DNA of 15,138 nt, taken from NCBI GenBank assembly GCA_037142615.1, contig JBAXAI010000057.1, positions 1 to 15,138 of the forward strand. Reading direction: 5' to 3'. Every line of letters starts with the position of its first letter. The first letter of the stretch is position 1. The translations under genes were made by a program, and so were the position numbers. This stretch comes from Spirochaetales bacterium (GTDB taxonomy: Bacteria; Spirochaetota; Spirochaetia; JABEVK01). This document shows, in pieces, positions 56-15,107 of this stretch. The notes below the pieces were generated by a model that saw only the letters and a program-made list of their open reading frames with translations, ran no database searches and had not been told where the DNA came from.

Positions 56-556
56 CTGGACGCGAGTCTCATCCACAACGCTCTGGCCATGCTGGAATCG
101 CAGGGTCGTCTCAAGGCGCTGATCACCCAGAACATTGACCTGCTTCACCAGAAGGCCGGGAGCAAGCACGTCATCGAGGTTCACGGCTCGCCTACCGTTC
201 ACCGCTGCCTGGATTGTGACCGGGTCTTTGCTTTTGAGACCATGGCGCGTCGCATCCGAAGTGGGGACATTCCGCCACTATGTTCGTGCGGCGGCTTCAT
301 CAAACCGGACATCACCTTCTTTGGGGAGCCACTTCCCGAGGCTGCGTTCCTCGATGCCAGACGCCATGTGATGTTGGCCGACGTGCTTCTGGTGCTGGGG
401 TCGAGCCTTTCCGTGTATCCCGCAGCATCGCTTCCTGAGCTGTGCCTCCAGCACAGCGGGAAGCTGGTCATCGTCAACGACCAACCAACCAGGTACGATG
501 ACCGGTGCACGCTGCGGCTTTGGGATCTGGAAGAGGCGTTTGCCCCGTCTGGGTGA
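56..556 (+). pseudogene. cobB: 5'-truncated Sir2/CobB (NpdA-type) NAD-dependent protein deacylase
   Basis: Motifs HNALAMLE, ITQNIDLLHQKAGS, IEVHGS (catalytic His), CLDC/CSCGG Zn site, KPDITFFGE, VLGSSLSVYPAA, IVN. The frame is open upstream of ATG89 only to 56, with TAG at 53-55 on the repeat junction. The N-terminal GAGxSxxSGIPDFR NAD-binding loop is absent. Confidence 0.85.
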
Positions 557-721: not shown

Positions 722-1147
722 ATGCTGACGACTCAAGAACGAGCCAGACTTACCCAGATGTTGACGATCGTGGTGAAGGGGAAGGTCTGGCTGCTGGCCC
801 AGGCGAAGGACTCAACGTGGGCGATCCGACTCTCGACTCATCCGACAAAGGTCTTGGCGCGACTGTCTGAGGTTCCCACGTACCGCGAGAGCTGGGATGC
901 CCTTTACTCGGTCATCGTCTCTCCCCCACGAGCCCTCTCAGTGGACGAAATCGCCTCGCTGGGACACCTGCTTCAGCAGCTCCTTTGGACGATGGAGAAT
1001 CTCAGAGCGAGGTCCACCGTCTCAGCGGTCCGGTCGTCGAACCCGGGCCTCTCGCCGCGGGCTGGTGTACAATCCCGCGCGGCTTCGGCTCAGCACGGTC
1101 ACCCGGTCGACGGTAGTTCGGCGGCCGCGATGGACCTCTTGAGGTAA
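722..1147 (+). CDS. Hypothetical protein (141 aa from ATG722; ORF open from GTG647)
   Basis: Protein-like composition to about ...WTMENLRAR. No clear RBS. The low-complexity tail overlaps the 3' end of the Macro gene by 49 nt. Confidence 0.35.
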   Translation: MLTTQERARLTQMLTIVVKGKVWLLAQAKDSTWAIRLSTHPTKVLARLSEVPTYRESWDALYSVIVSPPRALSVDEIASLGHLLQQLLWTMENLRARSTVSAVRSSNPGLSPRAGVQSRAASAQHGHPVDGSSAAAMDLLR

Positions 1148-1602
1148 CCCAGCGTCAGACCAGCAGACCTCTTTCCGCCTTCACCGCAGAACGCCTCGGC
1201 ACCCACCGCAAACGCCACGGAACCGCACCCTAGGTGGTCGGCTAACTGCATCGAAAGTGTTACGCAGGCCTCCAGCTCCCGACGCTCCTGAGAGGTCTTT
1301 GGGAACTGTTCGGGCCCCAAAGCATGAATCAGCGTCCGCGCGGGTAGTAGCCCGGGTACGGTGACGAGCACTCGGCCGGGACGAAGTCCTGGCTCGTTGC
1401 ACAGCCTCTCATACGCCTCGACTACTTCGGTACCGCCGGCCCAGCAGAAGCGATCAGAATGGCTTGGCGAGGGGCCATAGCCAACTTTGACGTTGACCAG
1501 GATGTCCGCCGAGAACCTGGTAATGTCGCCGTCAACAAGACGTATGGTCGTGCCGTTCCATTTCTCTTCGTAGGGGAGTTCAAATTCTCTGGCGTTGGAC
1601 AT
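1099..1602 (-). CDS. Macro-domain (ADP-ribose-binding / YmdB-like) protein with degenerate motifs
   Basis: IRLVDGDIT..ADILVN, GRVLVTVPGLLPARTLIHALGP and LADHLGCGSVAF match the macro fold. AGGAGG RBS 5 nt upstream of the ATG. Confidence 0.8.
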   Translation of the reverse strand: MSNAREFELPYEEKWNGTTIRLVDGDITRFSADILVNVKVGYGPSPSHSDRFCWAGGTEVVEAYERLCNEPGLRPGRVLVTVPGLLPARTLIHALGPEQFPKTSQERRELEACVTLSMQLADHLGCGSVAFAVGAEAFCGEGGKRSAGLTLGYLKRSIAAAELPSTG

Positions 1603-1605
1603 GGG

Positions 1606-1695
1606 GGCCTCCTGAAGTGGCTTTAGCGGTAGGCCGAGGGCCTGGTCCCCGGAAGGGGGCGTTGCCCCGCAAGCGGGAGCTCAAAACGGCAACGC
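1606..1695 (-). ncRNA. SAM-II-like riboswitch, copy A (leader of the Macro gene)
   Basis: Minus strand reads GCGUUGCC-GUUUU-GAGCUCCCG-CUUGC-GG-GGCAACGC, hairpin CCCC/GGGG, hairpin AGGCC/GGCCU, ACC-GCUAAAG, then AGGAGG-CCCCC-AUG. Loop CUCC can pair with SD GGAG. Confidence 0.7.
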
Positions 1696-1701
1696 AGGTT
1701 C

Positions 1702-1730
1702 AGTTGAGACCCTTCGGGGTTGCATGTCAA
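1702..1730 (-). promoter_or_regulatory. Putative sigma70-type promoter for copy A and the Macro gene
   Basis: TTGACA (1730-1725), 17 nt, TCAACT (1707-1702). The predicted +1 (~1695) coincides with the first base of riboswitch P1. The -10 box is non-consensus. Confidence 0.5.
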
Positions 1731-1740
1731 GAAGTTTCGC

Positions 1741-1769
1741 TTGACAGAATGACCAACTGGTGTTCAAAT
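1741..1769 (+). promoter_or_regulatory. Putative sigma70-type promoter for copies B/C and the 10-gene operon
   Basis: TTGACA (1741-1746), 17 nt, TCAAAT (1764-1769) preceded by TGt. The predicted +1 (~1775-1776) coincides with P1 of copy B. Confidence 0.55.
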
Positions 1770-1775
1770 GGAGTC

Positions 1776-1862
1776 ATCGTCGATTTAGTCTCCCACTTGC
1801 GGACGATACCAGAGTTTCTGGTGAAGGGCTACCCAGCCCACTGCTAAAGATTTCTAGGAGGC
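1776..1862 (+). ncRNA. SAM-II-like riboswitch, copy B
   Basis: AUCGUC-GAUUU-AGUCUCC-CA-CUUGC-G-GACGAU, hairpin ACCAGA/UCUGGU (1808-1822), hairpin GGGCU/AGCCC (1826-1839), ACU-GCUAAAG (1840-1849), AGGAGG (1856-1861). GUCUCC can pair with GGAGGC. Matches the SAM-II core GAUUU/UUGC/GCUAAA. Confidence 0.75.
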
Positions 1863-2020
1863 CCCCCAATCCAGCACTATTATTCATGACTCATTGCTGA
1901 CCTAGCCCCGTTCAGAATTTGCGTTGCACTGCGCCATTGGTGCATGACGCTCGGATAGACTTTGGTTCAGGAGGTCAGGCAACAAGGCAACCGCTATCCC
2001 GCATCCCAGTTTGGGATGTC

Positions 2021-2072
2021 TACGCCGTTTTCATCCAACTTGCAGGGCGTAATCACTGCTAAAACGGAGGTG
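2021..2072 (+). ncRNA. SAM-II-like riboswitch, copy C (directly over the RBS of the gene at 2077)
   Basis: UACGCC-GUUUU-CAUCC-AA-CUUGC-AG-GGCGUA-AUCACU-GCUAAAA-C-GGAGG-UGCCAC-AUG. Compact, canonical-sized pseudoknot; loop UCC can pair with SD GGA. Confidence 0.72.
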
Positions 2073-2076
2073 CCAC

Positions 2077-2631
2077 ATGGCATCTTTCACTTTGACCTAT
2101 CGAGACATCGAGCTCGAAGGTGAGATCACACACACGGGCGTCAGCTCGATAGGTGTACAATCCCTGGTCCCCTACGCTGGCCTTAGGGCATCAAAGCACT
2201 ATCCATTCCAAGCGGAGCACGTTCCCAGCCTTGCTGGCCCCAGGGGCCAAGACTGGGCGGCTGCACTTCTGACCCGACTGTACCTGGTCGGTCTCCAGAT
2301 CGAACAGCAACTTCCCCACTTCTTTGGACTCCTTTCAACCTACCGTCAGGAGGCGGCCTACTATCGTGCGTTGCAGGACAACGTCGACTACCAGGACGAC
2401 TGCCGTGAGCAGGTCCGACGACGTCGCGGGCGCTACGACATGGTCGACCACCGGGGCAGCAGACAGCACAGGGTCGATACGGAACTCTGCCAAGGACTAT
2501 TGGACAGGGGCTTGGCGCTCCAAGTCTTTGGCGGCCAATTCAGGCCTCGCCTGCCCGTGGAGACGCTACTGTCCATCGTGGACTACCTGGAAGACAGGAC
2601 AGCTGCCCAACGGGAGGTGCACAATGCCTAA
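2077..2631 (+). CDS. Hypothetical protein, first gene of the operon
   Basis: 184-aa ORF, GGAGG RBS at 2066-2070, stop overlaps the next gene's start. Confidence 0.7.
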   Translation: MASFTLTYRDIELEGEITHTGVSSIGVQSLVPYAGLRASKHYPFQAEHVPSLAGPRGQDWAAALLTRLYLVGLQIEQQLPHFFGLLSTYRQEAAYYRALQDNVDYQDDCREQVRRRRGRYDMVDHRGSRQHRVDTELCQGLLDRGLALQVFGGQFRPRLPVETLLSIVDYLEDRTAAQREVHNA

Positions 2632-3235
2632 CGACTCAATCGACTGGCAACGGGCCATTCCTCTTTTCGTCGGGGACCGCGAGAGGCTCTTTTCAGACAA
2701 GAAGTTACGGCTGGTCACCTTTCCTGACCTCGTTTTCGGGCTGGCGTACATGGGTGGAGGGCACCTTTTCTTGGGTGCCGCCATAATGGGTTGGCATGAT
2801 GGCTACCTCTGCCGACCCTGCCCAAAGTGCGAATCCAAGGCGTGGGTGACATGGGCGGGTGGAAGCCCACTCAGCGGTGCGGGTGCCTGGTCGGGTTACT
2901 GTCCCCGCTGTGGTTATGTCCACGTGAGGGAAAGAGTGACACAGCTCGTCGACCAACCCAAGGTCCGCGGTTACTGGGCCTCACTAGGCTATCAGCCAGT
3001 CCTCCAGAAGGCCTCTCCGTGGATCTTCTCGTTTGTCGATGGTGCGGTCCAACAAGGGAACCTCCAAGAGATCCGACTGCCTGTCCCTGGCTGGGAGGAG
3101 TTCATCAGGGATTACGACGCCTCACTACTGGTTCGAGCCGACGAGATCTTGCCGCAGGAGGACCGCAGCACCAGCTTCGGTCTCACTATCCGGGGCAAGA
3201 CCATCACTCTCGGAACGGAGGCCCACGATGAGTAA
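2624..3235 (+). CDS. Hypothetical Zn-ribbon protein (CPKC...GGSPLSG...CPRCG), 203 aa
   Basis: GGAGG RBS before ATG2624, so the true start is downstream of the ORF-track start at 2324. Two CxxC pairs. Confidence 0.75.
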   Translation: MPNDSIDWQRAIPLFVGDRERLFSDKKLRLVTFPDLVFGLAYMGGGHLFLGAAIMGWHDGYLCRPCPKCESKAWVTWAGGSPLSGAGAWSGYCPRCGYVHVRERVTQLVDQPKVRGYWASLGYQPVLQKASPWIFSFVDGAVQQGNLQEIRLPVPGWEEFIRDYDASLLVRADEILPQEDRSTSFGLTIRGKTITLGTEAHDE

Positions 3236-3716
3236 AACGCAAGGCTCCAAGCTTTGGCTTCGCATGGAAAAAGGCTACAACCGCGCCTACTATTGGCTCG
3301 AAATCAGAGACCACCTGCGCCAGTTGACGGTGCTCTGGGTCGAAGCGCTGGTGGCTGCGGCCCTGATTGCCATTGCCGTGGGTGCCATCTTCCTTCCCGA
3401 GGAAACGGCGCTGGGGCGGGCAGCGGTGGTGGTCATCGCGGCTTTGGCCATTTTCGAACCCCTGCGCCTGTTCGTCTACCTGGTCATCCTGGAGTGGGAG
3501 AAGTTCCGCGACCGCAACAAGGTCGAGCCCTCGCGCAAGGTGGCCATGGAGTACAGCTACTGGCTGTTCATCCGTTTCATGGCGTCCGTCTTTGAGCCCG
3601 ATCCCGAGATCAAAGCGCAGCTCCTCAGCGAGAGGGAGCGGAGCTGGAACCTGCACGGTTCGATGTTTGGCACGTCGGGTACCGACTTCGTCCCTCCCGA
3701 AGGGGTTGCACCATGA
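3228..3716 (+). CDS. Hypothetical membrane protein (about 2 TM), 162 aa
   Basis: GGAGG before ATG3228; hydrophobic VLWVEALVAAALIAIAVGAIFL and AAVVVIAALAIF segments; strong GC3 bias. Confidence 0.75.
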   Translation: MSKTQGSKLWLRMEKGYNRAYYWLEIRDHLRQLTVLWVEALVAAALIAIAVGAIFLPEETALGRAAVVVIAALAIFEPLRLFVYLVILEWEKFRDRNKVEPSRKVAMEYSYWLFIRFMASVFEPDPEIKAQLLSERERSWNLHGSMFGTSGTDFVPPEGVAP

Positions 3717-4090
3717 CTTGGGGCATTGTCGGCTCCCGCAGCTTTCAGGACTGGGACCGGTTCGTCGTCGAGCTCGACAGGCTGATGACCGGGCAGGTCG
3801 TCGACCGTATCGTGTCGGGTGGTGCCGACGGCGCGGACAGCCTCGCTGAGAGGTTCGCCCTCGAGCGCGGTATTCCCCTCACCGTCCACCAGGCCGACTG
3901 GGAGCGCTACCGCTCCAAGGCCGGACCCAAGCGGAACCGGCTGATTGTCCGTGACTCGGACGTCATCGTCGCCTTCTGGGTCGGGGTCAGCACCGGCACC
4001 AAGAACACCATCCGCCGTGCCCGTGAGGCCGGCAAGACCGTACACATCATTTCGATTCCCGAACCAGGAGATTCCCATGAAAACCTTTGA
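3713..4090 (+). CDS. SLOG-superfamily protein (YspA / DUF2493-like)
   Basis: IVGSRSF, IVSGGADGADSLAERFA, ADWERY..AGPKRN..IV..SDVIVAFW...STGTKNTI..A are hallmark motifs. ATGA overlap with the upstream stop. Confidence 0.85.
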   Translation: MTWGIVGSRSFQDWDRFVVELDRLMTGQVVDRIVSGGADGADSLAERFALERGIPLTVHQADWERYRSKAGPKRNRLIVRDSDVIVAFWVGVSTGTKNTIRRAREAGKTVHIISIPEPGDSHENL

Positions 4091-4430
4091 CCTCAAGCGC
4101 CGGTCCGCATTCTTCGTTGGCCTGCTGGTCCGTTACTCGAAAGCCCTCCTTCTGGCGTTGGGCCCGATCCTCCTTTTGGCTCTTGTCTACCTCGCCGTTT
4201 TTGTCATCTGGCAGGACAAAGGCTGGTGGGCCTTCCTCGTCCAATTCCTGAAACTCCAGGTTCTCAGCGGCTGGGTTCCCCGGACGATTCTGACAGTGTT
4301 GCTGCTGATCCCTGCGTTCCTGTTTGCGGCGGCGGCGGTGAAGGCCTACCTGGTCACGCTCCGAGACCCCCAGCTGGCGGAGTTGGAAGTAGCCGAACTG
4401 CGTCGGCGCGCCAGCAAGAGAGGATTGTGA
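4077..4430 (+). CDS. Hypothetical membrane protein, 117 aa
   Basis: AGGAG RBS before ATG4077; two long hydrophobic segments and a basic C-terminal tail. Confidence 0.7.
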   Translation: MKTFDLKRRSAFFVGLLVRYSKALLLALGPILLLALVYLAVFVIWQDKGWWAFLVQFLKLQVLSGWVPRTILTVLLLIPAFLFAAAAVKAYLVTLRDPQLAELEVAELRRRASKRGL

Positions 4431-5059
4431 TGGTTGTCGCTTGTAGCCGGTGTGGTACCGGCATCCCACTTGGACGGTCAATGTGCAGCTCTTGTGCTCA
4501 AGCGGCGACGGCCGAGCACACCATGAAGCTGGCTGAGTACGAGAGTGACCTCCGCCGATGGAACGCCATGTCTGACCGCGAGCGGGACTCGGCGCATCAG
4601 GCGGTCGACCAGCATTCGCTGAGGTGGAGTTTCTTCGGCGTGTTCGCTCTGGCATTTGCCATCGAACTCCTCGCATATGGCTTGGGAAAAGCCGATCTGC
4701 TTCAGCCTGAAGGCATGGTTGTCTACTTGACGACAGGGTGTTTGGCCTGGGTGCTCTACCGCGATGCCTTCGAAGTGACCGCGCGGACAGTCCGCGGCGC
4801 TGTGTACGCTTCGTTGTTCGCGGGCTTCGGTGCGCTCGTTGGTGCCGTGTTCGGATGGATCTTTCCCAGCCCCAGCCTGACCGCTGGTGTGAATGACGTT
4901 CTCAGTGCATTCGGGCTTGGGGCCAAATTCACCGATTCGATCGGCTTGGACGCCACACTGGTTGCCCTGGTGGCGTTCATCGGAGCGATCGTCGTTGAGG
5001 TCAGGATTGGCTGGTCGGGCACCGCCACTCCGACGCGGCCGTCGGCCCCACGCCTCTAG
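4430..5059 (+). CDS. Membrane protein with N-terminal Zn ribbon (CSRC...CSSC) and about 4 TM segments
   Basis: AGAGGA RBS, TGATG overlap, CxxC-x9-CxxC, a coiled segment, then hydrophobic helices. Confidence 0.7.
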   Translation: MVVACSRCGTGIPLGRSMCSSCAQAATAEHTMKLAEYESDLRRWNAMSDRERDSAHQAVDQHSLRWSFFGVFALAFAIELLAYGLGKADLLQPEGMVVYLTTGCLAWVLYRDAFEVTARTVRGAVYASLFAGFGALVGAVFGWIFPSPSLTAGVNDVLSAFGLGAKFTDSIGLDATLVALVAFIGAIVVEVRIGWSGTATPTRPSAPRL

Positions 5060-5068
5060 GAGGGAAAC

Positions 5069-5461
5069 ATGAAACGCAAGACACATCCCATCGCCATCCA
5101 TCCGCTGGAAAGCGAACCAGAACCCTGGCCGTCCACTCCCTTGATCTTCGACCGGTTTGACCTTCGAAAGCGAGGATGGTCACTGACGCTGATCCGGCGT
5201 CATCTGGACCACTGCGAGTTCAGGGTCCCTTCCGGGTACTACGCTGACAAGTGTTGCTACCCGGCGGGGGATGTCATCACCGCCGAAAGTACGGCGGCCT
5301 TTAAGGCTGGATTGGCCGTCACACAAGCAAGAAAAGCGGCCGCCAGATGCCCCCGGATTTTGCGCTGCCTCAAAATCCTCGACTGGGGACCTCGACTTCG
5401 GCTCATCGATTTCCCTCCGATCACTCCAGGCGATTCCAGTGAAACTGGAGGGGAGCAATGA
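5069..5461 (+). CDS. Hypothetical protein (LRKRGWS..LI...L motif typical of phage/plasmid HTH-like proteins)
   Basis: AGGAGG RBS; motif DLRKRGWSLTLIRRHL...Y...V..AEST.AF recalled from mobile-element hypothetical proteins. Confidence 0.65.
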   Translation: MKRKTHPIAIHPLESEPEPWPSTPLIFDRFDLRKRGWSLTLIRRHLDHCEFRVPSGYYADKCCYPAGDVITAESTAAFKAGLAVTQARKAAARCPRILRCLKILDWGPRLRLIDFPPITPGDSSETGGEQ

Positions 5462-5838
5462 CCGAACAGAAGCTGAGAAATGCCGTCGCACTGTGTCTCT
5501 GGACCCTCAGCGGCGCGGTCATGGCCTCCCTGTTCTGGACGTTGGCCGGAGAATCGCCGGTCGCAAGGGTGATCGGAACCGTTTGGGCCCTTTGCCTCAC
5601 TGCAGCCCAGATCCTTCTCTGGCGCTACGGCGGCTGGCGGCGATGGATCACTGTGGGTCTGGAATGCCTGCTCCTGTTCTCGGCTGTGACGATGGCATGG
5701 TCGCGCATTGAGGACGCACGTGCCCGTGAACTTCTGCGGCAGTTGATCAGTGCCGGTCGTGTCGCCATTCCCAAGTCGGTGGAGACCATACCCCGCACAG
5801 AAAAACAAACGATGGAGGCATCATCATGGCAAGTCTGA
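5458..5838 (+). CDS. Hypothetical membrane protein (3 TM)
   Basis: GGAGGG RBS, ATGA overlap, three hydrophobic segments. Confidence 0.65.
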   Translation: MTEQKLRNAVALCLWTLSGAVMASLFWTLAGESPVARVIGTVWALCLTAAQILLWRYGGWRRWITVGLECLLLFSAVTMAWSRIEDARARELLRQLISAGRVAIPKSVETIPRTEKQTMEASSWQV

Positions 5839-6308
5839 AATACGATCAGCTAGAACTTCGATTTGAGTACCGGTACGTGAGCTACTGGGAAAACGGCAAC
5901 ATCTTCCGGATCGGCTATGAGGTCGCCTTCCTTTGGGATGGACAGAGTCTGATCAATCCCCAAGTCATGAACGACGAAACGCCCGGCTCAGAGATCCGGG
6001 AGCTTGGCGGCTTCCTTCCTGTGGCCTTCGAGGAAGAGGGAATGATCGACCTCTTAGAACAAGTTCTGACAGCAGGCCGGGGCGGGGTTTGGGAGCCGTT
6101 GATCCTTCCTGCCATCGAGGTGACCGTAAGGGACCACCGCGACTACTTTTTGATCGACGTGTTCGCCTGCAGTGCCGCCTTCAAGGGATTCGACACCTAC
6201 TCGGGCAACGGCGTGGCACTCCGGCTTGAGGTCGACCGCCCCGAGCTCGAGCAGTTTCTAGCTGACCTGAAGGCAGAATATGCTCAGCTGCTGAAAGAGG
6301 CAGGGTGA
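5826..6308 (+). CDS. Hypothetical acidic protein, possibly WapI-like immunity protein
   Basis: GGAGG RBS; beta-rich with WEP...P and a C-terminal LEQFLADLKAEY helix. Family assignment is tentative. Confidence 0.65.
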   Translation: MASLKYDQLELRFEYRYVSYWENGNIFRIGYEVAFLWDGQSLINPQVMNDETPGSEIRELGGFLPVAFEEEGMIDLLEQVLTAGRGGVWEPLILPAIEVTVRDHRDYFLIDVFACSAAFKGFDTYSGNGVALRLEVDRPELEQFLADLKAEYAQLLKEAG

Positions 6309-6312
6309 AGCC

Positions 6313-6800
6313 ATGGCCGTCCTTCTGAATATCCCCAAAGGCGAGAACAATACATACTTGGAATTCTTCGTCACCGACGTCCCTGGGACTTGGTGGATCG
6401 ACAGCGAAGAAAAAGATCAGGGCTGGCCATCGAAGTTGCCTGAGGATCGGGAATTGTTGTTCCGACTTGAACTGGACATCCTGGATTCCCTTGTAGCCGC
6501 GTCGGGAATTCGGTGGCCACTAGGTGAGTATTTCTGGGACCGGTATGACTCTCGCACCGAGGACGGGAGAAGTAGCATTCAGTTCTGGGTGGAGCACTTT
6601 GAGAAAATGGCAACCAAGATCTCCGAGACACCAAGCCCAGCACTACTGGAGAAGTTGACAGCTGGAGCGTCCATCGTCTTGGTCGTCCAGCGACACCTGA
6701 AGCGATCCGCGAGGACCTCCTCGACACGTTGCACGCGATGCGAAGTGCTATCAGTGAGGTCATTGCTCTCCAGAAGACACTGTTTATTTTGGGTGTATAG
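6313..6800 (+). pseudogene. Hypothetical protein with a probable 1-nt frameshift near 6657
   Basis: The annotated frame becomes R/S/C-rich after LEKL. The alternative frame gives DSWSVHRLGRPATPEAIREDLLDTLHAMRSAISEVIALQKTLFILGV* ending at TAG 6798-6800. Confidence 0.55.
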
Positions 6801-6814
6801 CTGAGCACACGAGG

Positions 6815-7132
6815 TCAGGAATCGAAGTAGTGATCGACTGCTGTACCAACGCTTTCTCGAACGAAGATGCCCAGCGCATCGCCGAAGACGCGCTTGATGG
6901 TCTGGGGGTCGCGACGCTCTTGCTCGCTCATGAGGAGCTCCCAAGGACGTACCGCCAAGGCTCGAGAGAGTCCGTCAAGAAGTTCCATGGATGGGGACTT
7001 TCTACCCGCCTCAATCTCAGCTATGTGGTTTTGGGAGACTCCGGCGGCCTCGGCAAGGTGGGCCTGGGTGAGACCGAGTCCGGTTCGAAAGTGCCGGATG
7101 TTCTGGGTAAGGACTTCGTTCATGGAAGGCAT
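6815..7132 (-). CDS. XRE-family HTH transcriptional regulator
   Basis: NIRHFRTGLGLTQAHLAEAAGVSQNHIAEIEAGRKSPSMELLDGLSRALAVRPWELL is a canonical HTH_XRE. Start at 7132 or 7123. Confidence 0.9.
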   Translation of the reverse strand: MPSMNEVLTQNIRHFRTGLGLTQAHLAEAAGVSQNHIAEIEAGRKSPSMELLDGLSRALAVRPWELLMSEQERRDPQTIKRVFGDALGIFVRESVGTAVDHYFDS

Positions 7133-7150
7133 GACTGATGTTACTTTCGA

Positions 7151-7242
7151 GCGGATAATCCGCATTGACAATCAACTAGGAGGGATATAAAATCCCTAAA
7201 AGATGTACAGTAGGGTGATCTTTGGGTCTCATGGAGACCCAA
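7151..7242 (+). promoter_or_regulatory. Strong sigma70 promoter with overlapping palindromic operator candidates
   Basis: TTGACA (7165-7170), 17 nt, TAAAAT (7188-7193). Dyads: GCGGAT-A-ATCCGC (7151-7163), AGGGAT-N5-ATCCCT (7181-7197, covers the -10), TTGGGTCTC-ATG-GAGACCCAA (7222-7242). Confidence 0.7.
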
Positions 7243-7362
7243 GGTTTGCTTATGACCGGGTCCTGGTAGTGCGGGGTAGTCTCGACACTCCGATTTCGCT
7301 CGGTCACTTATGCCGCAGTCATGACGCTCTGCGGACGCTGTGGCACTGCCAGTCAAAGGGAA

Positions 7363-9822
7363 ATGGTCATGGACAAGGGCACGGGTGATCACAGCCACAA
7401 AACAAAGTCGCTCTTTCTACGGACCCTCGTGATCACCGTTTTGCCGGTCCTTATGGCGATAGGAGTACCTGCCGAAGCGAGGCACGCCCTGGTGGTGGGC
7501 AACTCCGTGTACGGCGGCAGTATCACCACGCTGGTGAACCCGGCCAACGACGCGGCCGACATGGGCAAGCTGCTGGCGGCCAACGGGTTCGCCGTCACCG
7601 AGCTGCACGACCAGGACTACGCCAGCTTCGAGGCCGGTTTGCAGGGCTTCAGCAAAAAAGTGTCCCGGGGCGACACTGTGGTGTTCTTCTACGCTGGGCA
7701 CGCGGTGCAGGTGGCCAACGAGAACTACCTGATTCCCGTCAAAGAAGCGATTACCAGCGAACCGCAGATCCGCAGCAAGTCGGTGAGCGTGGCCGAGGTG
7801 CTCGATTCGTTCAAGACCGCCGGCGCGGGCACCTGCCTTTTATTCCTCGACGCCTGCCGCGACAACCCCTTCACCGGGGCCAGCCGTTCGGCGACGCGTG
7901 GACTCGCCACTGTCGCTCCTCCCAAAGACATGGAAACTCTGATCGCCTATGCCACGGCACCCGGCGAAACCGCCAGCGACGGCGATGGGCGCAACGGCGT
8001 GTTCACGCAGGCGCTGCTCAAGAACCTGGCCCAAGACGGCGTGCCCATCACCGAGGCCATGACGCTGGTGAAGGCCGACGTGGTGCGCATTTCGAACGGG
8101 GTTCAGCGACCGCGTGTCGACGATGGCCTGACGAGGGCCTTTGTACTCAACGACGTGGCCACCGCCGCCACCAAGGCCAAAGCCGCCGCTGATGCCGCCA
8201 ACGCCGAGGCCGACCTGCTCGCGGCTCAGCTCGAGAAGGCCCGCGCCACCCTCGCGAGCGTCAAGAACGACACCGACCGCAAGACCAAGGAGCTCGAGGT
8301 TCAGGCCCAGGAAGCGCTGTTGGCTCAAAAGCAGCTCATCGCCGAAAACCTCGTCAAAGAGGAACAGAACCGCCAGTTGGCTGTGCTGCAGGCGCAGCGG
8401 TTGCAGGCCGCCCGCGAAGCTTCGGCCCAGGACGCGCTCAAGCAGCAGGCCGCCACCAGCGCCAAAGCCGACGCCATGCGCCGCGAGCTCGACGACCTGC
8501 AGAAGAGCGGTGCCCAGGACAGTCCCGATGCTCTGGTGACGGCTCTCGACGCCTTGGTTCCCCTCGAAAAGTCGATCAACGCCCAGTTTGACCAGAGCAT
8601 CGCCGACGTGAAGGCCCAGATCGGCACAACGTGGCAGGTGCAGATTGGCACGCTCAGCCTGCTCAAAAAGGAACCTTGGGAGTCGAAGAGCGAGTTCAGC
8701 GCGCGTGTGCTGGTCGAACAGACCAACTTCGAGCGCCAGCGCGACCAAGAGGTTCAGAATGCGCTGACGGGGCTGGAAGGCACCCGCCGCGCCCAGTTGG
8801 CTCAAGTCCAGGCCCGCCGCAACGTTTTGAACAACCAGTTGGCCACCAAAACCTGGCGCGAAGAAGGGTCCCAGGTCGAGTTGGTGTGGGGCGAGTTCAA
8901 CGACGAAACCAAGGATTGGCCGTGGACCATCACCAGCAAGGTGCCGGGCCTCGAGTGGAGCGACAGTGGCGTGGTCAACCTCGCGGGGCGCAACCTGGCC
9001 CGCGACTACACAGCGCTGCAAGCTGCCATCCAGAGCAAGAGCTTGTCGGCATGGTTTGAATACCAAGTGAAGTACCAGCTTGGGGGTTGGCACCCCATCG
9101 CCTTGGCCAGCTACGGTGTGCGCAATTTGACCACCAAAGCCGCGCTGTTCACCAGTCGAGGCCAGCAGACTGCGGCAGCTTTCCAGAGTGAGGGTTGGGC
9201 ACAGAAGGTCAGTCTCATCGACTCCTCCCGCCCTCTCGCGAGACAGGACAATGTGCGCATCTTGTTGCCTGACTTGCCCGGCGATGTCATCCTTTCAAAT
9301 GGGCGGAGCACACTGACCGCGCTGGTTCCTCGTCAGAATCCGCCGATCCTCCAGGCGACCTACCGGGGAGAGGCCTTCGGCTTCGTTTCCTTGGTCCCTG
9401 CGGGTTTGCTGCAGGCTTCTACCGTGATCGACCTTCGCCAAACACTACCCCAGGACCTCACGCGCCAGGCCCGCGATCGTAGAGCGGGGTTGGCGGCAGA
9501 GGCCCAATTCAAGAACACAATCGGAGTCAGTAGTTGGATCACAGGTGTCTTGGGGCTGGCCAGTGCTGGTGCTGCGGTCTGGGCCTACAGCGCGGGTTCA
9601 GCGACATACCTGCAATATCTCGCGACATACGACACTGACACCGCGCACGGACTTAACGTGCAGATGCAGGAGCAGCAGTCATTGTTCAACGGTTTTTTGG
9701 CGGCGGGAACCGGGTTGCTGGGAACTGCTCTAGCTACATGGTTCATCGCTCAGGATTTGGAGACTGACCGGCGCATCCAGACGCTGAGTTTGCTCATTGC
9801 CAAAATGGATGCCTCGCTATGA
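7363..9822 (+). CDS. Exported caspase-family (peptidase C14) protein with long coiled coil and C-terminal hydrophobic hairpin
   Basis: Signal-like LVITVLPVLMAIGVPAEA|RHALVVGN; LVNPANDA; FFYAGHA (His); LFLDACRDNPF (Cys); IAYATAPGETA.DG.GRNGVFTQALL; A/Q/E/K-rich coiled coil; two C-terminal hydrophobic helices. Start probably ATG7363 or ATG7369. Confidence 0.88.
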   Translation: MVMDKGTGDHSHKTKSLFLRTLVITVLPVLMAIGVPAEARHALVVGNSVYGGSITTLVNPANDAADMGKLLAANGFAVTELHDQDYASFEAGLQGFSKKVSRGDTVVFFYAGHAVQVANENYLIPVKEAITSEPQIRSKSVSVAEVLDSFKTAGAGTCLLFLDACRDNPFTGASRSATRGLATVAPPKDMETLIAYATAPGETASDGDGRNGVFTQALLKNLAQDGVPITEAMTLVKADVVRISNGVQRPRVDDGLTRAFVLNDVATAATKAKAAADAANAEADLLAAQLEKARATLASVKNDTDRKTKELEVQAQEALLAQKQLIAENLVKEEQNRQLAVLQAQRLQAAREASAQDALKQQAATSAKADAMRRELDDLQKSGAQDSPDALVTALDALVPLEKSINAQFDQSIADVKAQIGTTWQVQIGTLSLLKKEPWESKSEFSARVLVEQTNFERQRDQEVQNALTGLEGTRRAQLAQVQARRNVLNNQLATKTWREEGSQVELVWGEFNDETKDWPWTITSKVPGLEWSDSGVVNLAGRNLARDYTALQAAIQSKSLSAWFEYQVKYQLGGWHPIALASYGVRNLTTKAALFTSRGQQTAAAFQSEGWAQKVSLIDSSRPLARQDNVRILLPDLPGDVILSNGRSTLTALVPRQNPPILQATYRGEAFGFVSLVPAGLLQASTVIDLRQTLPQDLTRQARDRRAGLAAEAQFKNTIGVSSWITGVLGLASAGAAVWAYSAGSATYLQYLATYDTDTAHGLNVQMQEQQSLFNGFLAAGTGLLGTALATWFIAQDLETDRRIQTLSLLIAKMDASL

Positions 9823-12800
9823 AGCTCGGTGCTTTCCTGATCCCATCGCTACTCATGATTATTGCCTGCACCAACAGCTGGGGCCCGCTCAGCAACCCCG
9901 TAGATGACCTCAGTCCTTACTACGAGGGCCAGCCCACGGTAGCGACAGTCGCTGCCTTCGAACTTCTTGACCCAACAACCTCAGACCGAAAAGTGATTCT
10001 CCAGGCGACCAAGGTCGCCCATGCTGAAAGCTACAGTTTCCAGGGTTCCACCTCGGAGGATTTCGCATCAAGTGAAACTGAGGTGACCCAGACGTCTTCC
10101 AGCTTGGTGGTCGACCTGTCAAGCTCAATCGGTGGAGATCGGTGGTACCGATCGCGGGTCAAAGTCAGTGGCACTTGGTCGGAGTGGACGGCGGCGAAGA
10201 TGGTTACGCTAGTTCCGAAGGTTCCGGAGGGTCTGAGCGCAACGCAGGTCTACGGCATCGAGGCAATCAAGCTTAGCTGGACAAGTTCGAGCGATGCTGA
10301 AGGCTATGATCTGTACTGGTCCACCACCTCGCCCGTCACCACTGGATCGACAAAAGTCTCTGATGTGACCAGTCCTTATACTCTGGCGGGGCTCAGCAAC
10401 GGCGCAAGCTATTTCATTGGCATTCTGGCAAGGAACGCTGCAGGATCTTCTGACCTGAGTTCCGAGTTGAATACCTCGGTGGACCTCGGCTACTCGGTTA
10501 GTGTTGGCGACGGGGCCATAACGCTCTCATGGCAGCCCACCGGGGGCGCAAGTGGCTACAATCTCTATTTCGCTCAGGGATCGACAGTCACGAAAGCCAG
10601 TCCTAAATGGACGGGTTCAGCTCTCAACACGACTGTTGCAACAGTAACTGGTTTGGCAAACGGCGCCAATTACTCATTCTTAGTCACCGCCGTTGTCGGA
10701 GCCAACGAGGAAGACAAGACCTCGGTCATAACGGCTACGCCGGGTACGGCTCCGACACAAATCAACGCGGTAGCCTCGGGAACCTCTGTAGCATTGTCTT
10801 GGACGCCATTCAGGGGTGCAACTGGATATAACATTTATCAAGCGCTCGGAGCAACTGCCTCGACTGGCTCAACTCTGATCAAGACTGTTGGTACAACAGA
10901 TTCGACAACAGTTGATGGTTTGACTGCGGGAGCACAATACTCCTTCGTTATCACGGCTCTCGGAGGCGGCGAGTCACCGGCGAGCGCGGTCTCCACAATT
11001 ACCTTGGTGCCAGCACCACCAGCAAACCTTGGCTACAACGCGACGGCCAACTCCATCACGCTCACTTGGGCTGCCAGCACCGGTTCGACTACCCAGAATG
11101 TGTACTGGTCAGCCTCGTCACCGCTAACTACCTCCACTGGCACCAAGCTCTCGAATGCGTCCAGCCCTTTGGTCCTTAGCGGACTCGGCCCAGCGACAAA
11201 GTACTACTTCTTGGTCAGTTCACTGAATCAAGGAGGTGAGTCCGCTGCGTCTGCTCTCTCGACCATAACCTCACCAGCTGCGCCTGTAATCTCGGTCACA
11301 AGCACCACTTCCACCTCTGTGAGCCTGAGCTGGGCCAGCGTCGCAAGTGCCACCAGCTACAACGTCTACTGGGCGACCAGCAGCGGCGTCACGACGTCAA
11401 GCCCGAACAAAGCATCCGTTTCCGGAACAAGCTATACGGTGGCGGGTCTCGCTGTCGGAACGAACTACTACTTCGTCGCTACGGCACTGAATGGTGGTGG
11501 CGAGTCCGTGACTTCCGGTCAGGTCTCAGGGACAACCCGCCTACAGTATACTCTGAGCTCAACTGCGGGTTTGGGAGGAACGGTGAGCCCCCCACAAGCC
11601 TCAGTTGTCGATTCGGGGACGCCGTACAGTATCAACGCCACTCCCAACAATGGCTACCGCTTTGGCGGGTGGTCCGTGCTCTCCGGGGTGGCGACGCTTG
11701 GGAACCCAAAGAGTGCTTCGACAACGGTGGTACTCCCATCAGGTGGAGCAGCCATTCAAGCAGCCTTCGTTCAAATTGGTATAATCACCACCGTGGTTGG
11801 TACGGGTACCGGTGGCTACAATGGCGACGGCGGACCGGCGACATCTGCAACGCTCTACAACCCCACCGGCGTGGCAGTTGATAGAGCCGGGAACGTTTTC
11901 ATTGGTGACAACGCCAACTACTTGGTTCGCAAGGTGACAGTGGCCGGCATAGTCTCATCGGTGGCCGGCAACGGCATCCTTGGTTGGGCCGACGATGGTG
12001 TTGTGGCCACGTCCACGTCTGTAGGGGTAGCTGGGCTGACAATCGACAACTCGGGTAACCTGCTTGTAGCAGACTCTGCGCATAGTCGGGTCCGGAAAGT
12101 ATCTACCTCAGGGATTATCTCGAAAGTCGCAGGCACTGGAGCTCTGGGCTACTCCGGTGACGGTGGACTGGCAACTGACGCTACTCTTTACACACCTCTC
12201 GGTGTGGCAATTGACACAAGGGGTAATCTCTACCTCGCGGACTATCAAAACAACGTTTGCAGAAAAGTCGATCTTCAAGGAATCATTACCACTTTCGCCG
12301 GCGATGGAACAAACGGCTACATGGGGCCAAGTGAGGCTACTGCTGCCAAAGGCGATGGTGGACCGGCAACTACTGCCCAGCTCTCAAATCCACGTCGCGT
12401 TGCGGTCGACTCATCGGGTAACGTCTACATTGCCGACTCCTCAGACTGCCGCATACGGAAGGTATCGGTTGCAGGAACGATAACCACAGTTGCGGGAAGC
12501 GGTGTCCGATCCTTCGGCGGCGACGGGGGGGCGGCAACTAGTGCCACGCTAAACATTCCCACAGGAATTGTAGTTGACGCAGCAGGGAATCTGTACATCG
12601 CTGATTCGGGTAACAACCGAGTCCGCAAGGTATCAATAGCCGGAGTAATGTCCACGATAGCTGGAACCGGATCGGCAACCTTCAATGGAGACGGCGGCCT
12701 TGCCTCGCAAGCGTCCTTGAACGACCCCGAGGATTTGGCGCTCGACCAGGACGGAAATCTGTACATCGCAGAAACAGGCAATCACCGAATTCGTATGGTA

Positions 12801-12830
12801 ACGGGGAGTGGATCAGGTGTAGGGCCTTGA
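9819..12830 (+). CDS. Surface lipoprotein: about 5-6 fibronectin type III repeats, an InlB B-repeat-like domain and an NHL beta-propeller
   Basis: MKLGAFLIPSLLMIIAC lipoprotein-type signal; repeated LSW...Y.VY...GL..G..Y.F.V.A.N.GGES; ATPNNGYRFGGW; six GDGG.AT.A.L..P.GVAVD..GNLYIAD..N.RVRKV-type repeats. ATGA overlap with the caspase gene. Confidence 0.9.
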   Translation: MKLGAFLIPSLLMIIACTNSWGPLSNPVDDLSPYYEGQPTVATVAAFELLDPTTSDRKVILQATKVAHAESYSFQGSTSEDFASSETEVTQTSSSLVVDLSSSIGGDRWYRSRVKVSGTWSEWTAAKMVTLVPKVPEGLSATQVYGIEAIKLSWTSSSDAEGYDLYWSTTSPVTTGSTKVSDVTSPYTLAGLSNGASYFIGILARNAAGSSDLSSELNTSVDLGYSVSVGDGAITLSWQPTGGASGYNLYFAQGSTVTKASPKWTGSALNTTVATVTGLANGANYSFLVTAVVGANEEDKTSVITATPGTAPTQINAVASGTSVALSWTPFRGATGYNIYQALGATASTGSTLIKTVGTTDSTTVDGLTAGAQYSFVITALGGGESPASAVSTITLVPAPPANLGYNATANSITLTWAASTGSTTQNVYWSASSPLTTSTGTKLSNASSPLVLSGLGPATKYYFLVSSLNQGGESAASALSTITSPAAPVISVTSTTSTSVSLSWASVASATSYNVYWATSSGVTTSSPNKASVSGTSYTVAGLAVGTNYYFVATALNGGGESVTSGQVSGTTRLQYTLSSTAGLGGTVSPPQASVVDSGTPYSINATPNNGYRFGGWSVLSGVATLGNPKSASTTVVLPSGGAAIQAAFVQIGIITTVVGTGTGGYNGDGGPATSATLYNPTGVAVDRAGNVFIGDNANYLVRKVTVAGIVSSVAGNGILGWADDGVVATSTSVGVAGLTIDNSGNLLVADSAHSRVRKVSTSGIISKVAGTGALGYSGDGGLATDATLYTPLGVAIDTRGNLYLADYQNNVCRKVDLQGIITTFAGDGTNGYMGPSEATAAKGDGGPATTAQLSNPRRVAVDSSGNVYIADSSDCRIRKVSVAGTITTVAGSGVRSFGGDGGAATSATLNIPTGIVVDAAGNLYIADSGNNRVRKVSIAGVMSTIAGTGSATFNGDGGLASQASLNDPEDLALDQDGNLYIAETGNHRIRMVTGSGSGVGP

Positions 12831-12899: not shown

Positions 12900-14116
12900 A
12901 TGGGAATAGCTAAGGAAGAACTTCTTCGACTTGAGTCTCACAACTCCTCTCGAGTAGAACGCAGGAGTGTCTGCTTCACCTGCTTTACGAACACTCACTG
13001 AGTGACTTCATTCGAAGAAGCGCCATCAGTGAGGAGTGCGACTTCTGCGGGCAGAAATCGACAGTTCCAATCGCGTTGGACATTAGGGTAGTCATTGACA
13101 GAATTGAGGCATCTCTGGACCAGCTCCATGATGATCCGGAGAGGTTGGGGCTCCCTGTCGGGAACGGTGACGTGGTTCGGCCCACTGACCTCATTGATGC
13201 TTACGATATGGTTCACGATTTCGCCGATCTCGGCTGCGAGAATGAGGAAATTCTTGAGCAGATCGTGTGGGCGTTGAATGATCGTATCTGGTTGCAGCGT
13301 GGTTCAGTCTATCCGACAGTGGTGGAAACCCTAAGGTTCAGTTGGGATCGGTTCTCCAAGTTGGCCAAGTACTCTTGGCGTTACACTCTCCTTTCTGCGA
13401 TGCACAGTGGAACTGGGGTGCAAAATCGGAGTCCTGCTTCATTGCTGCGAGAGATCCTCGTGGTGGCGCAAAGGGCTTCTCTGTTGATCATGCTATCGAA
13501 AGGTACGTTGATCTTCCGTGCCCGAGTGCATAGCAGTAAAGAGAAAGCGAACGATGCGAAATCCCTAGGGACACCAACTGCAGAGAAGATCCGCAACCCT
13601 AACAGGATGAGCCCCGCAGGAATAGCTGTGTTCTACGGGGCGCTGGAGTCGGAAACTGCACGTTGTGAGGGTTGTTCTCAGCGGAGCAAGGGAAATCAAC
13701 TGACTATTGGTGAGTTCTACAACAACAAGGCAATAGGTGTTCTGGACCTTTCAGTTCCGCTATCTCTACCCGGGACTTATAGTGACGAGGTCGGGACTAC
13801 GGATGCTGTTGAGTTCCTAAATCGGTTCGGCGAGTTAGTCAGCGCTCGTGTCTCCCGAGAGACCGATTCGGGTCTCGACTATGTACCGACCCAGGTATTT
13901 TCGGAGTTTGTGAGGATGTCAGGAATGTCTAGGACTAAGGTTCGCGGGATAATCTTTCGAAGTTCTCAGCACGAAGGGGGTAGAAACTTGGTTCTTTTCT
14001 ACGGCCCGGAAGACTGCAAAGATCCGGGGCAGGTTGAAAGCGGGGATGACTGTCTGGTGTTGAGGGCCTACAGTAGGACTAGGATTGCCTCGAGACATAG
14101 TGGCAACCCGAAGTGA
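12900..14116 (+). pseudogene. RES-domain protein with HEPN/RES-associated Cys4 N-terminal domain, split by a 1-nt frameshift near 12990
   Basis: ATG12900 gives MGIAKEELLRL...VCFTCFTNTH*, continuing in another frame as SLSDFIRRSAISEECDFCG into ORF 13076-14116. RES motifs FRARVH, NRMSPAGIAVFYGALE.ETA..E, DYVPTQVFSEFVR, GIIFRSSQH.GG.NLVLF. Confidence 0.8.
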
Positions 14117-14522: not shown

Positions 14523-15107
14523 TCACCGTTGGTGCCGCCTCGCAAGTTTGTAGAAGGAAGACTTCGTCAGGTTTGTGGCCTTCATTGCCTCGACTGCGGT
14601 CAACTCGCCGTTCTTCCACTGGCGGTAGACCGACGACCAATTGGAAGGGACTTGGAGCTGTGGCCGGCCGAGGTGTTTACCCCGGGACTTCGCCGAAGCG
14701 ATGCCTTCACACTGTCGCTCAAGGATGGACTCCCTCTCCAGCTGACCAAGAGCGGCAAAGATTGTCAGCACAAAGTTCCCTTGCGGCGTCGAACTGTCCA
14801 GGCTCTCCTTGAGCGACCTGAAGCGAACTTTCTTGGCGGTCAGCGTGTCGACGATCTCGAGAAGGTCCTTGGTCGAACGGGCAAGGCGACTGATGGACTC
14901 GACCACTACCTCGTCTCCCTCCCGCACATATTCCAAGAGTGCCTTCAGGCCTGGCCGACTCTGGCTCTTGCCCGAAGCCTTGTCCGAGAAGATCTTCTCG
15001 ATCCCTAGGGAACTCATCAGGTCCATCTGCCGATCAAGAACCTGGTCCTCAGTCGAAACCCTAACATAACCAACCCGAGTAATTATGATGGACCCCGTTG
15101 TCAACAC
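14523..15107 (-). CDS. Serine recombinase (resolvase/invertase family) with C-terminal HTH
   Basis: GYVRVST (catalytic Ser), DKASG, RPGL, SISRLARS, LERESILERQ.EGIASAK.RG..LGRP, HTH tail. The GTG start and first 8 codons lie inside the terminal repeat. Confidence 0.92.
   Translation of the reverse strand: MLTTGSIIITRVGYVRVSTEDQVLDRQMDLMSSLGIEKIFSDKASGKSQSRPGLKALLEYVREGDEVVVESISRLARSTKDLLEIVDTLTAKKVRFRSLKESLDSSTPQGNFVLTIFAALGQLERESILERQCEGIASAKSRGKHLGRPQLQVPSNWSSVYRQWKNGELTAVEAMKATNLTKSSFYKLARRHQR

Follow-up and report, generated by a model that had tools for sequence, protein, structure and literature searches.

A putative SAM-sensing variant of the SAM-II/SAM-V riboswitches upstream of accessory genes in a Spirochaetales genome

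The window analyzed here is a stretch of 15,138 nucleotides (nt) from a Spirochaetales bacterium (assembly GCA_037142615.1) and is the entire 15,138-bp contig JBAXAI010000057.1, part of a 4.27-Mb draft genome. A divergent region between a minus-strand Macro-domain gene and a plus-strand string of open reading frames (ORFs) holds three RNA elements, copies A, B, and C, and a fourth, copy D, lies elsewhere in the genome. We think it likely that all four are S-adenosylmethionine (SAM)-sensing, translational OFF switches that form a variant of the SAM-II/V riboswitch superfamily and control accessory genes. What we observe, and what carries this reading, is the sequence anatomy of the copies, the covariation of their P1 helix, the identity of their pocket with that of SAM-II, their distribution, and the context of the genes behind them.

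RESULTS

Each copy is made up, in order, of P1, G(A/U)UUU, (C)UCC, CUUGC, P1′, a variable linker, GCUAAA, and the Shine-Dalgarno (SD) sequence GGAGG. The original prediction had placed three copies with these common boxes in one divergent region and had described P1 sequences unlike each other that all pair; both statements hold for A, B, and C, with coordinates agreeing within a few bases. Copy A, aptamer and expression platform together, spans 1695-1606 on the minus strand. Its P1 strands, GCGUUGCC/GGCAACGC, lie at 1695-1688 and 1666-1659, and the loop between them contains L1 (GUUUU, 1687-1683), the 5′ strand of P2a (CUCC, 1679-1676), and the 5′ strand of P2b (CUUGC, 1673-1669). Two linker hairpins (1658-1647 and 1642-1632) are followed by the 3′ strand of P2b (GCUAAA, 1627-1622), by GGAGG (1612-1608), which is both the SD and the 3′ strand of P2a, and by an ATG (1602-1600). 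On the plus strand, the copy B aptamer (1776-1861) has P1 at 1776-1781/1802-1807, GAUUU at 1782-1786, CUCC at 1790-1793, CUUGC at 1796-1800, hairpins at 1809-1821 and 1826-1839, GCUAAA at 1843-1848, and GGAGG at 1857-1861. Copy C (aptamer 2021-2070, plus strand) is the most compact form, with P1 at 2021-2026/2046-2051, GUUUU at 2027-2031, UCC at 2034-2036, CUUGC at 2039-2043, a linker of just 6 nt (2052-2057), GCUAAA at 2058-2063, GGAGG at 2066-2070, and an ATG at 2077. In both A and C, GGAGG lies 5 to 6 nt before the ATG.

This arrangement is not expected by chance: the pattern TTTAGC N12-42 GCAAG N6-9 AAAWC matches three times in the window, and in 200 dinucleotide-preserving shuffles of the window the mean was 0.00, with no shuffle giving any match. 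The predicted ability of the loop to sequester the SD is borne out insofar as the complementarity is real, but it is short (CUCC/GGAG in A, GUCUCC/GGAGGC in B, and UCC/GGA in C). Single-sequence minimum free energy folds were uninformative (z = -0.29, -0.79, and +0.16), because the pseudoknot is not modeled.

A covariance model, R1, was built from A, B, and C as seeds plus two relatives picked by an initial loose box pattern; that pattern gave about as many matches as its reversed control in the relatives and was used for picking candidates only. R1 scored the seed copies A, B, and C at 66.8, 57, and 65.3 bits, respectively. It also found copy D (G000:C1:453836-453935, minus strand; 48.5 bits), which was not a seed. 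Over 151 relatives, it returned genome G101, a seed, at 82.6 bits and genome G102, not a seed, at 47.7 bits. The remaining R1 matches among the 151 relatives were either weak and without the boxes or SAM-II elements with the standard linker. In a laxer search of five relatives, G101, G102, and G109 had one copy each and G103 and G104 had none. With filters off, R1 over 52,142 bases gave seven matches of at least 47.7 bits, the next best scoring 13.0.

The P1 helix covaries. Its pairs were counted by script; the MAFFT and covariance model alignments misplace the 3′ strand of P1 by one column in B and in those copies where the junction is of another length. The seven own-lineage copies have seven different P1 helices of 4 to 8 bp, with no mispairs and with compensatory changes at five of six positions. 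Among the 40 R1 matches, P1 had at least 4 bp in 40 of 40 and at least 5 bp in 38. Mean P1 length was 5.85 bp, compared with 2.77 bp when strands were swapped between copies; this comparison, like the one for P2a, misread a few copies with a GCUAAA inside the linker.

The loop and downstream boxes are those of the SAM-II binding core. In cmscan alignments of other elements, the SAM_alpha consensus reads CGUGGu-GAUUUGacCGGCCGGCUUGCA-gCCACG-UUAAAcAAgUC-GCUAAAgAGG, with the core boxes ..uGAUUUGacCGGCCGGCUUGCAgCCACGUUAAAcAAgUCGCUAAAgAGG.., and it shares with the window copies GAUUU, CUUGC, and GCUAAA, which follow one another in the same way about a P1 of 6 bp. For the 2QWY structure, passages of PMC3303485 describe the SAM adenine as stacked between U21 and G22 and paired with the unpaired U44, L1 residues U10 to U12 as building a major-groove triplex, and the sulfonium as placed between O4 of U11 and O4 of U21. 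Mapped onto our elements by way of these passages, U21/G22 are the UG of CUUGC, U44 is the U of GCUAAA, and U10 to U12 are the UUU of GAUUU. In the alignment, none of the seven own-lineage copies departs from CUUGC or GCUAAA; as L1, four of them have GAUUU and three have GUUUU. The SAM-contact positions described in the passages (U10-12, U21/G22, U44, and A45/A46) are kept in seven of seven, except that three copies have U for the A of GAUUU, and GUUUU is also seen in a standard element with the A-rich linker (L063). The earlier assignment of GAUUU/UUGC/GCUAAA to the SAM-II core thus agrees with both the SAM_alpha consensus and the PMC3303485 passages.

Curated models do not recognize the elements. 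The Rfam families considered were SAM_alpha (RF00521, gathering cutoff 36 bits), SAM-V (RF01826), and SAM-II long loop (RF01726, cutoff 44). The window had no matches at Rfam gathering thresholds, and the cmscan run with the SAM_alpha and SAM-V models, which the original prediction had offered as its first check, found no match at an E value of ≤10 for A, B, or C. The positive control worked for SAM_alpha (43.1 bits in L030, 39.7 in L043, and 36.1 in L034). Across the own genome, RF00521 scored 18.5 bits at best, on another contig. What Rfam did report on the window, its substretches, and the relatives (mir-2796, DnaX, and similar) was at chance level and was rejected.

Where the copies part from the known classes is the linker. 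It is AUCACU in C and AAAACG in G109, neither being the approximately 11-nt A-rich strand of SAM-II, and in A, B, D, G101, and G102 it is 26 to 45 nt long, with one or two hairpins and 7 to 23% A. With SAM-II (RF00521, 2QWY), the copies share the H-type pseudoknot, a P1 loop with GAUUU and ..CC NN CUUGC, the downstream GCUAAA with one unpaired U, a P2a that may take in the SD, and a box order and spacing that match the Rfam consensus. They differ in lacking the approximately 11-nt linker UUAAAcAAgUC and in their genes, since standard-linker elements have methionine genes behind them and the variant has non-methionine genes. The predicted platform differs as well. The original prediction had SAM-II switching translation off, whereas the passages of PMC6061858 that bear on this have most SAM-II elements acting transcriptionally; the variant appears to have a translational platform.

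SAM-V (RF01826) is closer in some respects. As far as the pertinent passages of PMC6061858 go, its core equals the SAM-II core, its linker carries a small hairpin, P3, with three P1-docking adenines after it, and the SD lies within a P2a that is very short. The SAM-II ligand core, a linker hairpin (in the A, B, D, and G101 copies), and a translational OFF switch built on a very short, SD-holding P2a would all be shared. On the other side, there is no RF01826 match at an E value of ≤10, no docking AAA follows the hairpins of A, B, D, and G101, and the variant has up to two linker hairpins or none (C). SAM-V comes from marine alphaproteobacteria and Bacteroidetes, in contrast to the GC-rich freshwater lineage here, and controls other genes. 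The long-loop family, RF01726, offers a precedent as a recognized divergent SAM-II group missed by the main model, according to the part of PMC2864571 that introduces it; it gave no match on the window copies and 19.9 to 22.3 bits, below its cutoff of 44, on relatives with the A-rich linker. By comparison of sequences, then, our elements are a variant within the SAM-II/V superfamily and not members of RF00521, RF01826, or RF01726 as these are modeled.

Behind copy A is the Macro-domain gene (1099-1602, minus strand; 167 amino acids [aa]; Pfam Macro, 1.9e-09, 37.9 bits), whose ATG (1602-1600) lies 5 nt past the SD of the copy. In NCBIfam, the protein weakly matches O-acetyl-ADP-ribose deacetylase, in each case below cutoff. 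The first gene after copy C, gene 1 (2077-2631, plus strand), encodes a 184-aa orphan for which we found no Pfam, PHROGs, NCBIfam, or PADLOC family and whose sole database match was its own fragment. Gene 2 (2624-3235, plus strand), which shares its first 8 nt with gene 1, encodes a 203-aa Zn-ribbon protein with two CxxC pairs. Its homolog in G101 (43% identity over 182 aa) is the gene that immediately follows the riboswitch copy there, and the family has seven proteins only; its AlphaFold2 model (pLDDT 78.8) had no fold match in the PDB at an E value of ≤0.001, and its best Atlas score, 0.89, is a lead only. Genes 1 to 3 and their neighbors gave nothing in PHROGs, NCBIfam, or PADLOC. The ORF list and Pfam show ten further co-oriented ORFs after gene 2 (3033-12830, plus strand), and from the orientation and the short or overlapping gaps these probably share a transcript with gene 1. 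They include a YAcAr/SLOG protein (Pfam; 3713-4090, plus strand), an 833-aa caspase-domain protein (7321-9822, plus strand; Peptidase_C14, 3.8e-35), and a 1,003-aa protein with five fn3 and five NHL repeats (9819-12830, plus strand), the start of which is overlapped by 4 nt by the caspase-domain gene. These last two genes form the end of the string behind copy C.

The claim that the elements control the Macro gene and the operon is partly supported: A and C are directly upstream of the Macro gene and the co-oriented string, respectively, and B has no gene of its own. That the downstream genes are unrelated to methionine or SAM metabolism was confirmed, since no controlled gene in the window is a methionine gene.

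Other genes of the window were noted in passing. Near the contig start, a Sir2-family ORF (89-556, plus strand) converges on the Macro gene region; it matches only profile positions 71 to 180 of 180, and its N-terminal part is apparently missing. At the contig end are a 346-aa protein with a HEPN/RES-N-terminal and a RES domain (13076-14116, plus strand) and a serine resolvase (14523-15107, minus strand), which fit an accessory or mobile island.

Elsewhere in the own lineage, copy D precedes an orphan 222-aa protein adjoined by a PIN_3-domain protein, and the G109 copy precedes an orphan 165-aa protein. The locus of D (L056; G000:C1:448000-458000) also contains identical 300-nt direct repeats at 6379-6678 and 9171-9470, about 450 nt upstream of D, and a Mu-type transposase/integrase gene (2600-4237, minus strand) downstream of its two genes. 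In the related G101 locus (L057), a NUDIX gene adjoins a Macro homolog (1345-2326). The string headed by the G101 riboswitch includes a RadC-JAB homolog (6927-7358; 41% over 120 aa), and in a metagenome contig a RadC-like JAB protein (L184, 883-1630, minus strand) directly follows a SAM-II-like element.

The G102 copy, alone in the own lineage, heads an operon with a MetK-like gene: AAA_5 (MoxR-like), a 161-aa protein, DUF2201_N/VWA, and a divergent MetK-like protein (S-AdoMet_synt_C, 1.3e-18), at 1892-6181 (minus strand) of L058 (G102:C1:170000-180000). A Burkholderiales metagenome-assembled genome (MAG) has the same four-gene operon (L074, 1542-6177, plus strand), with proteins 33 to 43% identical to those of G102, preceded by a SAM_alpha-like element of 30.4 bits (below 36) with the standard UUAAAC.. 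linker. In a second Burkholderiales MAG (L129, 4364-7886), the locus ends inside the VWA gene and the first three genes are seen. Across loci, the second gene encodes a protein of 160 to 210 aa. The operon MetK-like proteins score 67.7 to 73.5 bits, compared with 234.6 bits for the housekeeping MetK of the own genome, which has one such ordinary MetK, no R1 copy at that gene, and no SAM-I or SAM-I/IV riboswitch. The literature searched contained no description of this MoxR-VWA-MetK-like operon.

The genes behind standard-linker elements are very different. As a control, Pfam was run on 62 of 86 first ORFs behind elements that a script had assigned to the standard linker; the 24 dropped were mostly shorter than about 200 aa and are likely spurious or from a UAAAC-linker subgroup, a selection that favors long enzymes. 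At least 50 of the 62 are methionine-pathway enzymes; the tally includes 24 Abhydrolase_1 (MetX type), 20 Cys_Met_Meta_PP, 4 MetW, 2 homocysteine methyltransferases, 3 GCV_T, and 1 AAA_5. Among the metagenome variant-controlled proteins tested, eight had no Pfam family and one had a twin-arginine translocation (TAT) signal only. A possible kinship of a 222- to 236-aa family behind metagenome variants with the 222-aa protein of D or with gene 1 was rejected (hhalign probabilities, 0.2 and 0.1).

SAM_alpha itself occurs in 12 of 151 sampled genomes of the own taxonomic class, one element each, 8 of them over the cutoff. Eleven of these 12 elements have a close ORF: one encodes an ADP-ribosylglycohydrolase, eight others that were tested could not be placed confidently in any Pfam family, and two are dubious. 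The ADP-ribosylglycohydrolase gene (L030/L260, G119:C1, 1486-2592; 257.9 bits) directly follows the SAM_alpha element of 43.1 bits, a parallel to the Macro gene after copy A.

Similar elements are widespread. Scanning a single genome from each species for an exact pattern gave at least 120 stretches; the 80 loci listed from it are mostly from Burkholderiales and other Proteobacteria, and nearly all have the standard A-rich linker, with a hairpin inserted in the linker in a few. A second pattern, from which the common proteobacterial CUUGCGG form was excluded, gave 76 metagenome stretches; these include records identical to copy C and to the G101 copy as well as many marine-type standard-linker elements. 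A further variant group has P1, a covarying 3- to 4-bp hairpin, GAAYGCG, GCUAAA, the SD, and an ATG at +13 (L180, L198, L214, L245, L201, L185, L182, and L244), and there are singleton variants in L197 and L225 and as second copies in L127 and L252. No metagenome variant copy reaches its Rfam cutoff, and only the L127 copy appears at an E value of ≤5 (23.8 bits). Nineteen of 148 distinct pattern matches with a P1 of less than 4 bp were put aside as likely false. A viral scan yielded one contig, identical to a metagenome match and lacking the P1 helix, probably a chance or coding match.

Clustering is usual. R1 found 40 copies over 25 loci, with arrays within 1 to 4 kb: L245, a contig of 2.6 kb, has four copies, L214 and L074 have three apiece, and L225, L185, L252, L234, L201, L127, and L129 have two. 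In L127, cmscan gives three SAM_alpha matches, one of them missed by R1. Some array members precede small orphan genes, one aptamer per gene. The three elements in one region of the window are thus an instance of a general habit; they are not unique, and other lineages have similar variants, often in clusters. In two metagenome contigs, a SAM-I/IV riboswitch (60.2 and 56.3 bits) is followed on the same strand by a variant copy that precedes another small gene: L182 (4854-4956 and 4280-4349, minus strand), with a small ORF in the gap of about 500 nt, and L244 (1388-1492 and 822-894, minus strand), with a gap of about 500 nt.

Within the divergent region, promoter-like hexamers could be read by eye on both strands: TTGACA (1741-1746), 17 nt, and TCAAAT (1764-1769) on the plus strand and TTGACA (1730-1725), 17 nt, and TCAACT (1707-1702) on the minus strand. 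The pairs stand back to back, and P1 begins 7 nt past the second hexamer on each strand; the -10 boxes are weak. A scan of the region for terminator-like sites found none. No RNA run was listed as containing the stretch; among four sequencing runs compared, contigs had the window sequence at low depth, none of them coming from the one RNA run, which speaks neither for nor against expression.

DISCUSSION

By analogy with SAM-II and SAM-V, we read copies A to D as cis-acting H-type pseudoknots with a P1 hairpin of 6 to 8 bp. In each, the 5′ part of the P1 hairpin loop, G(A/U)UUU, would be the L1 triplex strand; CUUGC in the 3′ part of the loop would pair with the downstream GCUAAA as P2b, leaving one U, the equivalent of U44, unpaired for the SAM adenine; and (C)UCC of the loop would pair with the SD, GGAG(G), as a short P2a. 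Bound SAM would complete the L1-P2b triplex and stabilize P2a, hiding the SD and keeping translation from starting on the Macro gene (A) and on the string headed by gene 1 (C). When SAM drops, the SD would become free and translation would proceed. What we infer, in this sense, is that SAM binds, that binding turns translation off, and where the transcripts begin and end; the intact pocket, the MetK-like operon, and the neighboring SAM-I/IV riboswitches together make SAM the most likely ligand.

A number of results weigh against this picture. P2a is just 3 to 4 bp long and gives no covariation signal, the longest complement averaging 3.85 in real copies and 3.65 in swapped ones, so that SD sequestration is argued from conserved complementarity. 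The linker lacks the A-rich strand with A-minor contacts that is conserved in SAM-II and SAM-V. SAM_alpha, SAM-V, and SAM-II long loop score none of the seven own-lineage copies at an E value of ≤10, and no SAM family appears at that level in 701 nt around the window copies or in 71 nt around C. The controlled genes of the window have no evident link to SAM. A consensus promoter scan gave no sites, which makes the hexamers a lead only. Finally, the SD of copy B is not followed by a start codon, and no ORF begins after it.

The last point bears on the role of copy B, which, with no start codon after it, would control no gene directly. It may form the upstream half of a tandem with C, or else it is a leader left stranded by the loss of its gene. 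A functional tandem of B and C in one leader is a plausible arrangement, though we would not bet on it. The B aptamer is intact, gene-less pairs 29 to 74 nt apart occur in at least seven other loci (L245, L214, L201, L252, L234, L074, and L127), and a tandem SAM-II/SAM-V leader with two superfamily aptamers is known from “Candidatus Pelagibacter ubique,” as reported in a passage of PMC11508383. Unlike in that leader, as it is outlined there, the pair here consists of two variants, and the one platform that can be made out in B is an SD without a start codon. In addition, no terminator was found after B, and the B-C gap, at 148 nt, is longer than in the other tandems. What follows the SD of B, GGAGGCCCCCCAAUCC (CCCCCCAAU), compared with GGAGGCCCCC(C)AUG, that is, CCCCC(C)AUG, in A and D, also speaks for a relic, since GGAGGCCCCCCAAU resembles GGAGGCCCCC(C)AUG with the start lost.

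The variant might instead have changed its ligand, sensing ADP-ribose, NAD+, S-adenosylhomocysteine, or a SAM breakdown product, in keeping with the ADP-ribose-processing genes it controls. Such genes do recur, with Macro behind A, the ADP-ribosylglycohydrolase behind a SAM_alpha element, and NUDIX beside Macro in G101. The linker is unlike that of SAM-II, and there is a precedent for a ligand switch in the SAM-I variants that sense spermidine, as stated in a passage of PMC10853860. We nevertheless regard a changed ligand as possible but improbable and do not favor it. Known specificity switches alter pocket nucleotides, whereas the 2QWY contacts given in the PMC3303485 passages are kept in all seven copies, with a neighboring A-to-U change in three, and a pocket that places a positive sulfonium between uracil carbonyls, as described there, should suit diphosphates poorly. 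The ADP-ribosylglycohydrolase element passes the SAM_alpha cutoff, and the association with ADP-ribose thus extends beyond the variant. In a congener, the variant also heads the MetK-like operon, the Burkholderiales counterpart of which follows a standard-linker SAM-II-like element, and variant copies neighbor SAM-I/IV riboswitches. The other adenosyl ligands entertained in the original prediction are weakened accordingly.

Least probable, and in our view very doubtful, is that the elements respond to no ligand, being a conserved leader pseudoknot, a protein-binding operator on mobile cassettes, or decayed SAM-II: the lack of Rfam matches, the loss of the A-minor linker, the persistence of B after gene loss, the sporadic occurrence (four copies here, one each in G101, G102, and G109, and none in G103 and G104), and the unrelatedness of the controlled genes to one another would suit this, but P1 and the linker are free to vary whereas the unpaired nucleotides of the pocket are strictly conserved, a pattern of a ligand pocket and not of a generic hairpin, and the boxes are kept across distant lineages.

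In textbooks, SAM riboswitches serve the feedback control of genes for sulfur and methionine; taken as SAM sensors, the elements here would go beyond that picture. The literature searched, with the supplements of the most relevant papers outside the search, described neither the variant subclass nor any link from it to Macro, ADP-ribosylglycohydrolase, RadC-JAB, or MoxR-VWA-MetK-like genes; nothing in it joined SAM-II with MoxR or defense systems, or with RadC beyond a motif table, and no relevant link of SAM riboswitches to antiphage function or to phage SAM lyase emerged. A passage of PMC2864571 places RNAs that expand SAM-II in its Additional File 1.

One can speculate about a second regulon, in which a fall in SAM, as when a phage destroys SAM or blocks SAM synthetase, derepresses accessory conflict modules. 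We hold this to be unlikely as it stands. If it were true, the modules would be Macro, ADP-ribosylglycohydrolase, MoxR-VWA with a spare SAM synthetase, RadC-JAB, caspase-type proteins, and many orphans, each with its own aptamer and often in arrays, and the riboswitch would be a metabolite-level alarm for conflict systems and not a methionine feedback loop.

Our findings bring to notice aptamers with a SAM-II pocket that escape curated models, occur several per locus, and stand almost only before nonmetabolic genes: Macro, ADP-ribosylglycohydrolase, RadC-JAB, the MoxR-VWA-MetK-like operon, and many orphans. They also draw attention to that operon, conserved and unstudied, with its second SAM-synthetase-like gene. 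As small RNAs of 52 to 97 nt, the elements are a testable handle on when such modules turn on. Should they bind SAM, then SAM riboswitches have been counted incompletely, and the SAM level signals to accessory, probably conflict-related, modules; this suggests that the level of the methyl donor also gates gene modules outside metabolism.

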